NCBI RefSeq assembly: GCF_000012925.1
Contig: NC_007517.1
Location: 1,590,001 to 1,622,000 of the forward strand
Reading direction: 5' to 3'
Length of the DNA: 32,000 nt
Source of the DNA: Geobacter metallireducens GS-15
Lineage (GTDB): Bacteria; Desulfobacterota; Desulfuromonadia; Geobacterales; Geobacteraceae
Part shown: positions 18,477-21,081 of the stretch, piece by piece
Position numbering within the stretch: position 1 is the first letter of the stretch
Layout: each line of letters begins with the position of its first letter
Made by a program: the position numbers and the translations under genes
The notes under the pieces: model-generated
Told to the model about the DNA's origin: nothing
The model's database searches: none
What the model saw: only the letters and a program-made list of their open reading frames with translations

Positions 18477-18737
18477 GTGAGCTGGCAGGTTTACATAATC
18501 CTTTGCTCCGACAATTCGTTGTATACCGGGATTACTACGGATCTTGACCGGAGGTTCCGCCAGCATGCAGGTGGGACTGGCGCAAAGTATTTCCGGGGAC
18601 GGCGACCGCTGCGGGTAGTCTATCTTGAAAACGACCACAGCCGCTCGTCAGCCGCCAGCAGGGAAGCGAAGATCAAGGCCATGGGCCGTACCGAGAAAAT
18701 GAATCTGATCACCACAACGTCTTTGCGGGCAAGGTAA
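18477..18737 (+). CDS. GIY-YIG nuclease-superfamily protein (UPF0213/YhbQ-like)
   Basis: WQVYIILCSDNSLYTGITTDLDRRFRQH....AKYFRGRRPLRVVYLE...SRSSAASREAKIK matches the single-domain GIY-YIG motif order (YIL..., YTG, R..QH, E..IK). GTG start, so the start position is uncertain. Confidence 0.8.
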   Translation: MSWQVYIILCSDNSLYTGITTDLDRRFRQHAGGTGAKYFRGRRPLRVVYLENDHSRSSAASREAKIKAMGRTEKMNLITTTSLRAR

Positions 18738-18919
18738 GTACATGTGTAGGTGTGTAGCCGGGTAAGAGGATAACATGGCCGGACATGTCGTTGTCGGTAC
18801 CGACGTGCGTCGATAATGAATCAAGACAGCTTTCGACATGGTCAACAATTTTCTCTCTGGCCACGCCATGCGTAATGCTCAAGCTCTTCCAGGGGTAACC
18901 TCCCTCACACACCACCCGC

Positions 18920-18948
18920 TTGACACGCTGCTCCTCTGGTGATAGGTT
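18920..18948 (+). promoter_or_regulatory. Putative lexA promoter
   Basis: TTGACA (18920-18925), a 17-nt spacer, then TAGGTT (18943-18948). The -10 element overlaps the LexA box. Confidence 0.45.
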
Positions 18949-18962
18949 GGCACATGTGAACC
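18945..18962 (+). promoter_or_regulatory. LexA operator (Geobacter-type SOS box)
   Basis: GGTTGGCACATGTGAACC matches every constrained position of GGTT-N2-C-N4-G-N3-ACC. That imperfect palindrome was reported as the binding site of both Geobacter sulfurreducens LexA proteins in their own promoters (Jara et al., J Bacteriol 2003). It lies 18 nt upstream of the lexA ATG. Confidence 0.8.
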
Positions 18963-18979
18963 TATAGAGGAGCAGCGCC

Positions 18980-19585
18980 ATGGAAGAACTCACCCCTCGC
19001 CAGAACGAAGTCCTCCGATTTCTCGAAGGCTACCTCACCCAATACGGCTATCCCCCAACCATGAGGGACATTGCCGCCCATCTGCGGATAAGTGGCACCC
19101 TTGGGGTATCGAAACACCTCACCGCCTTGGAACGCAAAGGGTACATCCGCAGGGACCCTGGCAACTCCCGCGGCATTTCCCTCGTGGGCCACGGATCAAA
19201 ATCGGCATCGCTCCCGATCGCTGGCGTGGTGCGGGCCGGCATGCTCCAGCCGGCCATCGAGGATATCGAGGGGTATCTGGCCATCGACCAGGCCCAGCTC
19301 AAGGGGGGAAAGTTCTTCCTGCGGGTGAAAGGGGACTCCATGGTGAACGCCGCCATCCTCGACGGCGACCTGGCCCTCATCCGTCCGCAGCCCACTGCGG
19401 AGAATAACGACATCGTCGTCGCCATGGTCGACGGCGAGGCGACCCTCAAGGCCTTTTACCGGGAGCGGGGACAGATTCGCCTCCAGCCCCGCAACCCGAA
19501 CATGGAGCCGATCATCATCCGGGAAGGGGAGGGTGAGGTCGCGATCGTCGGCAAGGTGGTCGGGATCTTCCGGACCCTGGAATAA
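18980..19585 (+). CDS. lexA: LexA repressor (SOS transcriptional regulator / S24 autopeptidase)
   Basis: Winged-helix N-terminus (LTPRQNEVLRFLEGYLTQYGYPPTMRDIA), an Ala-Gly cleavage region (VVRAGM), catalytic Ser in GDSMVNAAI and Lys in ATLKAFY. Confidence 0.95.
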   Translation: MEELTPRQNEVLRFLEGYLTQYGYPPTMRDIAAHLRISGTLGVSKHLTALERKGYIRRDPGNSRGISLVGHGSKSASLPIAGVVRAGMLQPAIEDIEGYLAIDQAQLKGGKFFLRVKGDSMVNAAILDGDLALIRPQPTAENNDIVVAMVDGEATLKAFYRERGQIRLQPRNPNMEPIIIREGEGEVAIVGKVVGIFRTLE

Positions 19586-19588
19586 GCC

Positions 19589-19843
19589 ATGCTGCAGCGG
19601 GTACAGGAACAGATCAGAGTCGGGGCCGTCTTTGGCCCGGGGCCGTCCATCCACCCGGTCTGGTTCGACTGGCGGCAACAGAAACACGCCATAGAGAAGG
19701 TCACCTACCGCTGGCGGCACATTGCGGGCAATGCCCTCCTGCTTCACTTCGCCGTTACCGACGGCACTGCCCTCTATGAGCTGATCTACAACTCCCGGGA
19801 ACAACTCTGGACCCTGGAAGCGGCCGATGCGGAGGTCGTGTGA
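19589..19843 (+). CDS. Hypothetical 84-aa protein embedded in the lexA-dinB operon
   Basis: The ATG lies 3 nt after the lexA stop. Its stop overlaps the dinB GTG start in GTGTGA (4-nt overlap). It has GC3-biased codons and no recognisable motif: MLQRVQEQIRVGAVFGPGPSIHPVWFDWRQQKHAIEKVTYRWRHIAGNALLLHFAVTDGTALYELIYNSREQLWTLEAADAEVV. Confidence 0.65.
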   Translation: MLQRVQEQIRVGAVFGPGPSIHPVWFDWRQQKHAIEKVTYRWRHIAGNALLLHFAVTDGTALYELIYNSREQLWTLEAADAEVV

Positions 19844-21081
19844 GCGGCCGGGTCATCATGCACGTGGACATGAACGCCTTTTTCGCCAGCGTGGAGCAGC
19901 AGCACGACCCCGCGCTCAGGGGCAAGCCCATCGCCGTCATCGGCTCCGCAGCCCGCACCGTCATCACCACTGCCTCCTACGAGGCCCGGGCCTTTGGCGT
20001 CAAAACCGGCATGACCGTCTGGCAGGCACAACAGAAATGCCCCCAGATCATCCTCGTCACCGGAGACAACCGGAAATACACCTACACCTCCGCCCGGATC
20101 GTCGAGATGATGAAGCAGTTCACCCCGCTGGTGGAGGTCTTCTCCATCGACGAGGCCTTTCTCGACGTCACCGGCTCCCTCTCCCTGTATTCCAGCGCCG
20201 AGCGGATCGCCTTTCTCCTCAAGGCCGAGATCCGGCACCACTTCGGCCTTACCTGCTCCATCGGCATCGCCCCCAACAAGCTCCTCGCCAAGCTCGCCTC
20301 GGAGATGAAAAAGCCCGACGGCCTCACCGTCATCAAGCCCGACGACGTTGCCCCGGTCCTCGAAACCCTGCCGATCAAGGAACTCTGCGGTATCGGCGCC
20401 AAGATGGAGTGCCAGCTGAACCTCCTGGGGATCAGAACCTGCGGCGAGTTGGGCCGCTACCCGGTGGACCGGCTGATGCGCAAATTCGGGATAGTGGGCG
20501 AGAAGCTCCACCTCATGGGGCAGGGGATCGACGACTCCCCGGTAGTCCCCCACGAAGAGGCCGAGGAAGTCAAATCGGTGGGCCACTCGACGACGCTTGA
20601 GCACGACATCGAGGACCGGCGGGAGATCCTTAGGTGGCTCCTCCAACTCTCCGAGATGGTGGGGCGCCGGGCCCGCAGATATAACGTCTGGGGAAAGACC
20701 GTCACCCTCTCCATCCGCTACGCCGACTTCGACACCTGGGTAGGGAGGCAGGAAACGCTCCCCCACCACATCAACCAGAGCGATGACATCTACCGGGCCG
20801 CCGTCGCCATCCTCGATACTCTTGTCCTGGAGCAGCCGGTAAGGCTCCTGGGGGTAAGGCTCAGTAACCTCCGCTACGAGTCGAACCAACTGCCGCTCTT
20901 CGAGGAGGAGCGGAAGAAGGTGCTCCTGGCCGGGGCCATGGACCAGGTGAACGACAGGTTCGGCGACTTCGCCGTCACCTTTGGGAGCCTCCTGGACAAG
21001 GAGCGGCGCCAGGAGAAGGGCTCCCACGTCATCTCCCCCGCCTGGCGGCCGGAGGGGATCAGGAATGTGGATGTGAAGTGA
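19840..21081 (+). CDS. dinB: DNA polymerase IV (Y-family translesion polymerase)
   Basis: IMHVDMNAFFASVEQ, FSIDEAFLDVTG, GIAPNKLLAKLASEMKKPDG and the HhH segment LPIKELCGIGAK. GTG start preceded by GGAGG. Confidence 0.95.
   Translation: MSGRVIMHVDMNAFFASVEQQHDPALRGKPIAVIGSAARTVITTASYEARAFGVKTGMTVWQAQQKCPQIILVTGDNRKYTYTSARIVEMMKQFTPLVEVFSIDEAFLDVTGSLSLYSSAERIAFLLKAEIRHHFGLTCSIGIAPNKLLAKLASEMKKPDGLTVIKPDDVAPVLETLPIKELCGIGAKMECQLNLLGIRTCGELGRYPVDRLMRKFGIVGEKLHLMGQGIDDSPVVPHEEAEEVKSVGHSTTLEHDIEDRREILRWLLQLSEMVGRRARRYNVWGKTVTLSIRYADFDTWVGRQETLPHHINQSDDIYRAAVAILDTLVLEQPVRLLGVRLSNLRYESNQLPLFEEERKKVLLAGAMDQVNDRFGDFAVTFGSLLDKERRQEKGSHVISPAWRPEGIRNVDVK

Follow-up and report, generated by a model that had tools for sequence, protein, structure and literature searches.

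The window that we analysed, a 32,000-nucleotide stretch of Geobacter metallireducens GS-15 (contig NC_007517.1, positions 1,590,001 to 1,622,000), contains a tight cluster of three genes in which an 84-aa open reading frame (ORF) lies between lexA and the gene for a Y-family DNA polymerase. Numbered from the first letter of the window, its features are the following:

18920-18925, + strand: -35 element TTGACA of the lexA operon promoter, read from the sequence and present at the same place in 17 of 17 orthologous upstream regions inspected
18940-18948, + strand: putative extended -10 element TG-n-TAGGTT, read from the sequence, following the -35 element after a 17-nt spacer
18945-18962, + strand: putative LexA operator GGTTGGCACATGTGAACC of the GGTT-N10-AACC type, an exact motif match that overlaps the -10 element
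18980-19585, + strand: lexA, 201 aa (TIGR00498, 1.1e-62; PF01726 and PF00717)
19589-19843, + strand: imuB-C, 84 aa, Pfam DUF6504 superfamily (homologues, dN/dS, links to DUF6504, hhalign, AlphaFold2 model and the listing in PMC6511836)
19840-21081, + strand: dinB, Y-family polymerase gene (PF00817, 8e-53; PF11799, 2e-31; NF002848, 391 bits)
20887-20901, + strand: beta-clamp-binding motif QLPLF, DinB residues 350-354, read from the translation
20905-20988, + strand: RecA-NT-like motif EERKKVLLAGAMDQVNDRFGDFAVTFGS, DinB residues 356-383; the same string is listed for ABB31675.2 (PMC6511836, Supplementary Table)
20989-21078, + strand: conserved C-terminal tail ...GSHVISPAWRPEGIRNVDVK, DinB residues 384-413, a candidate docking site for ImuB-C

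The genes are packed with hardly any space between them: 3 nt separate the TAA of lexA from the ATG of imuB-C, the TGA of the latter shares a 4-nt overlap (GTGA) with the GTG of dinB at 19840, and a GGAGG lies 4 nt 5′ of that GTG. In this species a single mRNA would presumably carry lexA, imuB-C and polY(dinB), and the 3-nt gap together with the GTGA overlap would couple their translation, so that ImuB-C would be produced along with the polymerase. A profile search returned this lexA as the sole match in the genome above the cut-off, and the dinB product is likewise its sole full Y-family match; the genome has one complete cassette and one decayed remnant. A sequence-only reading of the locus had described a three-gene, LexA-controlled cassette with a Geobacter-type operator and coupling signatures, and all the features that it named are indeed present in the sequence.

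With respect to regulation, PMC8565304, citing Jara et al. 2003, gives GGTT-N10-AACC as the LexA motif of G. sulfurreducens; our literature search found no match in any paper to the exact motif string. The palindromic GGTTNNCNNNNGNNAACC occurs once in the window versus 0.04 times expected from shuffles. At loci L002, L004 and L006, which belong to the same genus, boxes of the GGTTnnCAnnTGnnAACC form are found at the same position and TAGGTT is kept, and in more distant genera related CAnnTG-centred palindromes occupy the same upstream position. A consensus scanner called no promoter at lexA, because the -10 element agrees with the consensus at just 3 of 6 positions. The looser published pattern GGTTNNCNNNNGNNNACC shows no genome-wide enrichment (33 matches versus 52 in the reversed control), so the case for the operator is carried by its position and not by the mere match. 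With these data, we infer that 18945-18962 is a LexA binding site: in undamaged cells LexA would sit on the GGTT-N10-AACC box overlapping the -10 element of the single promoter, and upon DNA damage its RecA-stimulated self-cleavage would free that promoter. We rejected the LexA motif alone as a means of defining the regulon in this genome, given the above control count and the fact that the closest-matching second site, at 571654, lies within a gene.

The 84-aa ORF is a real gene under purifying selection. Homologues with open frames occur in 32 of the 41 genomes of the order, with frames of the same length in five of its families, and the dN/dS values of unsaturated pairs (0.10-0.17) lie in the same range as those of lexA and dinB, so that selection on the frame in orthologous loci, on which the earlier proposal had hinged, is confirmed. 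The same can be said of the three-gene order: it was seen in all 17 loci first inspected, lexA lies directly upstream of imuB-C in 78 of 80 loci and dinB downstream in about 60 of the 80, and across 110 loci the distance from the lexA stop to the imuB-C start has a median of 3 nt, with the imuB-C stop abutting or overlapping the dinB start in most of them. There are also 13 loci with imuB-C and no polymerase within 3.5 kb, and three with a dinB stub only. Thus, imuB-C is tied more tightly to lexA than to dinB, a pattern that is less easily reconciled with a protein whose only partner is the polymerase. These related loci were gathered with the alignment of closer homologues, which returned Geobacterales only; hence, the distribution beyond the order rests on the literature. 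At E<=0.001 the homologues form 574 clusters of 50% identity, nearly all of about 80 aa. That the ORF might instead be a chance open frame in the lexA-dinB spacer, giving rise to no functional protein, could be argued from the bare GGA, in lieu of a strong Shine-Dalgarno sequence, ahead of its ATG and from its annotation as hypothetical in public databases; but the low dN/dS, the constancy of frame length across five families, the 574 clusters, a fold predicted with confidence and the homology to an ImuB domain (see below) render this scarcely conceivable, and conservation and selection by themselves already refute it to a reasonable standard.

The affinities of the protein emerge from a chain of links rather than from a single search. 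Against DUF6504 (PF20114) the window protein scores a sub-threshold E=0.026, and 10 of 13 close homologues likewise match below threshold; homologues that are 44-46% identical to it and are found in the same lexA-orf-dinB arrangement exceed the cut-off. The same model recognizes an ImuB of 518 aa encoded in an imuA-imuB-dnaE2 cassette, at residues 437-512 (30.3 bits, cut-off 24.2). In a profile–profile comparison with hhalign, the 89-sequence family profile aligned with four ImuB C-termini over 70 columns at E=1.5e-4 and a probability of 52%, with W74, the sole invariant column of the 89-sequence alignment, falling on the conserved C-terminal W of ImuB (RWF[LI]HG). A direct search of the four ImuB proteins with the family HMM gave 6.7 bits, a score too weak to stand alone. 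Given the sub-threshold E-value, this bit score and the modest probability, membership rests on several moderate links taken together with published analyses, in which HMM searches for the ImuB-C family gave 1e-4 to 1e-5 (PMC3765255). Among the close homologues R10 is invariant and K32 is at least 90% conserved; in the broad alignment of 89 sequences every basic column stays below 90%, with a consensus R after WFxWxG at the place where ImuB has WRRKRYR. Two other hits were dismissed: HoxF, retrieved at E=0.82 in a search of PDB sequences with the family profile, is only a chance match, and a second weak genomic match to DUF6504 (G000:C1:1223557) falls within a 509-aa ORF that is unrelated.

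The AlphaFold2 model of the 84-aa protein (mean pLDDT 94, pTM 0.84) has seven strands and no helix, in agreement with the description of ImuB-C as a domain of about 80 residues formed almost entirely of beta-strands. Foldseek found no PDB structure similar to the model at E<=0.001; this agrees with the published view that ImuB-C has a novel fold (PMC12926913). Lectins and lipocalins, which gave the best TM-scores of about 0.4, were rejected as chance beta-sheet matches.

The family, the lexA-imuB-C-polY type of operon and this very gene are already known in the literature. The ImuB-C family was defined on GSU0042 of G. sulfurreducens by Aravind, Anand and Iyer in 2013 (PMC3765255), and the supplementary table of Timinskas and Venclovas 2019 (PMC6511836) lists for G. 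metallireducens GS-15 ABB31673 as LexA, ABB31674 as ImuB-C and ABB31675 as PolY, the window gene being ABB31674.1. According to the same work, which cites Jara 2003, damage induces the Geobacter lexA-imuB-C-polY operon, whose genes form a single transcription unit. A 2026 survey (PMC12926913) states that AlphaFold was used to model representatives of 11 kinds of module built on DnaE2 or PolY, with PolY-ImuB-C among the listed associations; hence, co-folding appears to have been done already for this family. As a discovery the locus accordingly matters little. The earlier reading saw in the small protein a possible accessory factor for the Y-family enzyme, a part that survives; it also considered it apparently unrelated to other translesion modules and uncharacterised, a part that gives way to the profile search, which places the protein in the known ImuB-C/DUF6504 family by way of the ImuB C-termini. 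Public databases still carry the protein as "hypothetical", without a domain.

As judged from its translation, DinB is a GeoPolY-like Y-family polymerase, with intact catalytic carboxylates in the motifs HVDMNAFFASVE and SIDEAFLDV and, further on, a RecA-NT-like motif with an additional conserved tail. The QLPLF motif, whose assignment to clamp binding relies on the established QL[SD]LF consensus, is conserved in 70 DinB orthologues. Immediately downstream, EERKKVLLAGAMDQVNDRFGDFAVTFGS resembles the N-terminus of the genome's own RecA, ...ALSQIEKQFGKGAIMRLG, and is kept in the same 70 orthologues, in which the GSHVISPAWRPxGIRNVDV of the tail is nearly invariant. The strings of motif and tail alike agree letter for letter with the ones given for ABB31675.2 (PMC6511836).

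Which proteins could ImuB-C contact in this organism? Neither in this genome nor in 100 further genomes of the phylum did an ImuA exceed the cut-off, the ImuA model giving matches at the RecA level only, and ImuB and DnaE2 are absent from this genome, the latter as indicated by its one Pol III alpha. The contacts known for ImuB-C, namely DnaE2's PHP domain and ImuA, thus cannot be the ones used here; with a single full Y-family enzyme at hand, this leaves RecA, LexA and the polymerase encoded next to it as the candidate partners among known mutasome components. We therefore consider it very probable that lexA-imuB-C-polY(dinB) is an SOS operon autoregulated by LexA in which the 84-aa ORF encodes the stand-alone ImuB-C, and likely that this protein serves as a small subunit in a translesion complex, PolY-ImuB-C-RecA. 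ImuB-C would most likely bind the C-terminal region of the PolY enzyme (RecA-NT-like motif plus tail) and RecA, yielding a three-part translesion polymerase that would correspond to UmuC-UmuD′2-RecA (Pol V) as well as ImuA-ImuB-DnaE2. Such a complex may be expected to influence lesion bypass or mutagenesis. The authors of PMC6511836 state that the interaction between tail and ImuB-C has no supporting data. With its single lexA, single Y-family polymerase and lack of ImuA and DnaE2, G. metallireducens offers a clean background for experiments on free ImuB-C.

Two other functions deserve to be weighed against this one. Aravind et al. 2013 (PMC3765255) originally proposed a role for ImuB-C in sensing DNA damage, whereby it would be a DNA-binding domain that guides the polymerase to lesions or distorted DNA rather than a structural subunit bound to its tail. 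This proposal drew on conserved basic residues, the lack of a catalytic pattern and links to repair systems as unrelated as Ku/ligase, SplB photolyase and SRAP (PMC3765255), and it would also account for DUF6504 members found away from any polymerase and for the lexA-imuB-C loci that lack dinB. However, in modelled ImuA-ImuB-DnaE2 complexes the ImuB-C barrel touches DnaE2's PHP domain as well as ImuA, not DNA (PMC12926913), only Trp74 and no basic residue (at the 90% level) is conserved throughout the 89 sequences, and a protein partner is suggested by the strongly conserved extra tail of the polymerases adjoining imuB-C; we hence regard a DNA-sensing role as unlikely. A still less probable alternative, to which we give little credence, is that the Geobacterales ImuB-C has the LexA/RecA switch as its main target, for instance by tuning RecA filaments or the cleavage of LexA in the manner of DinI or RecX, with the polymerase as no more than a frequent neighbour. 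It would explain the near-constant presence of lexA directly upstream (78 of 80 loci, as a rule at a distance of 3 nt), and the roughly one quarter of loci in which dinB is missing, truncated to about 50 codons or displaced by inserted genes with imuB-C left intact; moreover, the ImuB-C domain of ImuB helps to bind ImuA, itself a RecA homologue (PMC12926913). If true, it would amount to a new kind of SOS modulator. Yet, outside the order ImuB-C travels with polymerases, often without lexA, as in the YqjH groups, with ImuY/DnaE2 of Deinococcus and with DnaE2 of Actinobacteria (PMC6511836; PMC8072749; PMC12926913), and the two genomes checked in which the locus has no dinB or only a stub (G010 and G021) carry a complete cassette elsewhere, so that action in trans on that polymerase is possible there.

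Understood as a subunit of PolY-ImuB-C-RecA, the protein can be set beside several known systems. The Geobacter lexA-imuB-C-polY operon prototyped by GSU0042 shares with it the family, gene order and type of operator, as well as a polymerase of the GeoPolY-like subgroup with the RecA-NT-like motif and tail, and nothing essential differs; the title of Jara 2003 speaks of two lexA genes in G. sulfurreducens, as against the single one here. ImuB's C-terminal domain, as found in the ImuA-ImuB-DnaE2 mutasome, is a homologous beta-barrel, likewise under LexA control and next to the RecA-NT-like motif of a Y-family protein, but the domain here is a separate polypeptide and its Y-family partner is catalytically intact. 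UmuD′ of Pol V and YolD/YqjX of Gram-positive bacteria are similar in being small, mostly beta accessory proteins of LexA-regulated operons, associated with a Y-family polymerase whose RecA-NT-like motif precedes a conserved tail. Unlike them, ImuB-C shows no relationship in sequence or fold and has neither an S24 peptidase domain nor self-cleavage, and relative to the repressor the genes stand in the opposite order; indeed, the 84-aa protein has no Pfam or NCBIfam match to UmuD- or YolD-type families, and PMC12926913 sets the barrel of ImuB-C apart from the SH3-type one that UmuD′ and YqjX have. Finally, another known LexA-led operon shares with this locus an 80-residue stand-alone ImuB-C; the Y-family protein of that operon is predicted to lack activity, with DnaE2 serving as the polymerase, whereas here the Y-family enzyme appears active and DnaE2 is absent.

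The 84-aa frame between lexA and the Y-family polymerase gene is a genuine gene, whose product is identified by sequence comparison as a stand-alone ImuB-C protein. The gene, imuB-C, lies in the following configuration in the window:

18920-18925, + strand: putative -35 element TTGACA, read from the sequence and followed by a 17-nt spacer
18940-18948, + strand: putative extended -10 element TG-n-TAGGTT, read from the sequence, upstream of lexA
18945-18962, + strand: putative LexA box GGTTGGCACATGTGAACC, an exact GGTT-N10-AACC over the -10
18980-19585, + strand: lexA, 201 aa, matching TIGR00498 at 1e-62
19589-19843, + strand: imuB-C, 84 aa, read from the window sequence
19840-21081, + strand: Y-family polymerase gene (dinB, PolY), GTG start, 413 aa, matching PF00817, PF11799 and NCBIfam's Pol IV models

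The imuB-C ATG follows the lexA TAA by 3 nt, and its TGA shares 4 nt with the polymerase GTG, which has a GGAGG 4 nt to its 5′ side; indeed, the genes, box, promoter and coupling signatures described in the sequence-only reading are all present in the window. A six-frame search of 41 genomes from the order recovered the frame, open and equal in length, in 32, across all five families sampled. The order lexA-imuB-C-dinB, whose conservation had been singled out for checking, was seen in each of the 17 loci in the initial inspection. Another 80 loci came from named assemblies, every one belonging to Geobacterales or Desulfuromonadales; among them, lexA was directly 5′ in 78 and a full dinB was 3′ in 57 (adjacent in 52 of these), and across 110 loci the median gap between the lexA stop and the imuB-C start was 3 nt, with the imuB-C stop abutting or overlapping the dinB start in most, these counts being descriptive because the loci are related and partly overlapping. 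Against the closest four orthologues its dN/dS was 0.10–0.17, in the same range as those of lexA (0.10–0.15) and dinB (0.15–0.19), and searching 1.8 billion representative proteins with a family profile recovered 574 clusters at E≤0.001, nearly all of about 80 aa. Absence, frameshifting or lack of purifying selection, named beforehand as grounds for dismissing the gene, is thus not the pattern found, and a non-coding frame is excluded.

Public databases label the protein hypothetical with no domain assigned, and against Pfam it gives only a weak match to DUF6504 (E=0.026). Four lines of sequence and profile comparison beyond that match confirm its membership of the ImuB-C family. The same weak match recurs in 10 of 13 close homologues, and several small proteins of the phylum sample that score above the DUF6504 cut-off are homologues of imuB-C (44–46% identity, tblastn 1e-17 to 1e-22), likewise in the lexA-ORF-dinB arrangement. 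As reference ImuBs we used four encoded directly 5′ of dnaE2 on plasmids, with an imuA-type gene annotated alongside in three; DUF6504 matches the C-terminus of two, one above cut-off (residues 437–512 of 518, 30.3 bits), and is therefore Pfam’s model of the ImuB C-terminal domain. When a profile of 89 family members was aligned by profile–profile comparison (hhalign) to one of the four ImuB C-termini, the result was E=1.5e-4 over 70 columns at 52% probability, with Trp74, the sole invariant residue of the family, aligned on the conserved Trp of ImuB. Given this probability and the weak direct HMM score of the family against ImuB, each link is moderate, and the links are mutually consistent. 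The AlphaFold2 model is seven-stranded and all-beta (pLDDT 94), and PDB sequence and structure searches found no neighbour, in agreement with a 2026 survey that describes ImuB-C as a beta-barrel whose fold is novel and differs from the SH3 barrel of UmuD′ and YqjX (PMC12926913). Full-length DUF6504 proteins of about 94–109 aa also occur in non-SOS contexts (loci L028-L030 and L035), beside genes that by eye are cobalamin-biosynthesis- and outer-membrane-receptor-like; hence, the domain family extends beyond its SOS-linked branch.

The literature already contains this finding. ImuB-C was defined on G. sulfurreducens GSU0042 by Aravind, Anand and Iyer in 2013 as a beta domain of ~80 residues that has a conserved C-terminal Trp and is related, at HMM E-values of 1e-4 to 1e-5, to the C-terminus of ImuB, with dinB its most frequent neighbour and lexA an often-found one (PMC3765255). 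The supplementary table of PMC6511836 (2019) lists for GS-15 (two replicons, 4,011,182 bp) ABB31673.1 LexA, ABB31674.1 ImuB-C and ABB31675.2 PolY (GeoPolY-like), so that the protein which the sequence-only reading took as apparently unrelated and uncharacterised belongs to a described family; the C-terminus of the window’s polymerase corresponds letter for letter to the RecA-NT-like motif EERKKVLLAGAMDQVNDRFGDFAVTFGS and tail LLDKERRQEKGSHVISPAWRPEGIRNVDVK tabulated there. The same paper, citing Jara et al. 2003, describes the Geobacter lexA-imuB-C-polY operon as damage-induced and a single transcription unit, and PMC12926913 includes PolYs associated with ImuB-C among its listed associations and reports AlphaFold models for representatives of 11 DnaE2- and PolY-based module types.

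The polymerase looks active from its motifs DMNAFF and SIDEAF; it also carries a putative clamp motif QLPLF, a RecA-NT-like motif similar to the N-terminus of the genome’s own RecA, and a tail, GSHVISPAWRPxGIRNVDV, that is nearly invariant among orthologues. The GS-15 genome holds one lexA, one full Y-family polymerase and one Pol III alpha, hence no DnaE2, and ImuA gave no match over the cut-off either in it or in a further 100 genomes from the phylum. Thus, DnaE2 and ImuA, the known partners of the domain within ImuB, are absent, leaving the adjacent polymerase, RecA and LexA among known mutasome components. In the best-supported reading, LexA would repress the operon lexA-imuB-C-polY, its genes would be translated in a coupled manner, and the products would assemble as a PolY-ImuB-C-RecA translesion complex; a contact between the polymerase tail and ImuB-C has, by the explicit statement of the PMC6511836 authors, no data in its support. 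The earlier idea, that an SOS operon encodes a translesion polymerase together with an accessory factor for it, survives in spirit, shorn of its novelty and of the claim that the protein is unrelated to Imu systems.

Alternatively, ImuB-C might act on the LexA/RecA switch, as suggested by its tighter link to lexA than to dinB and by loci in which dinB is absent, cut to about 50 codons or displaced by inserted genes. However, beyond the order the constant neighbour of ImuB-C is a polymerase, and both genomes checked among those with dinB-less or stub loci (G010 and G021) hold a complete cassette elsewhere. It is also possible that ImuB-C is a DNA-damage sensor, as Aravind et al. proposed.

The GGTT-N10-AACC motif is that quoted for G. 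sulfurreducens LexA (PMC8565304). Its palindromic form has a single match in the window, where 0.04 would be expected, and the looser pattern shows no genome-wide enrichment; therefore, its position over the lexA -10 is what counts. Upstream of lexA in loci L005 and L007-L017, the palindrome over the -10 varies with phylogeny: the window’s genus has GGTTnnCAnnTGnnAACC, other genera have TAT-N10-ATA or GTT-N10-AAC types, in many cases with two boxes in tandem, and the paralogous lexA of G010 and G021 has AGTGCTCAATTGGACACT, with a CAnnTG centre kept throughout. This looks like co-divergence of operator and repressor. A 94-aa minus-strand ORF (18709-18993) is antisense to both promoter and operator of lexA, and directly 5′ of the promoter an 86-aa plus-strand ORF (18477-18737) with a GIY-YIG-like N-terminus (YIILCSDNSLYTGIT...) stops about 180 nt before the -35.

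Outside the window, the genome carries a decayed second SOS cassette (G000:C1:~1808637-1808945; locus L130:1294-1605), in which a frameshifted C-terminal piece of lexA (residues ~146-201, the final 38 at 71% identity) is directly followed by N-terminal dinB residues 4-43 (72% identity), ending in a stop, with imuB-C missing between them. Thus, GS-15 is left with a single working cassette plus a stub, in contrast to the two complete cassettes of several relatives. Some relatives have genes between imuB-C and dinB (L017:3916-5222; L031:1843-3006; L033:1900-2760): in one case a 192-aa ORF and a 243-aa HExxH protein, metallopeptidase-like by motif, and in others a DNA methyltransferase-like ORF or a 286-aa protein. 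An association of ImuB-C with zincin-like peptidases was noted by Aravind et al. (PMC3765255). In loci L067, L070, L072, L076-L078, L087 and L115 the lexA-imuB-C pair has no polymerase within 3.5 kb, and the genes 3′ of it, judged by eye from their N-termini, are variable, being response-regulator-like or of mobile/defence type, the latter including toxin–antitoxin-like pairs and a recurring ORF of ~480 aa; this suggests that the polymerase-less pair is located at the edge of variable regions.
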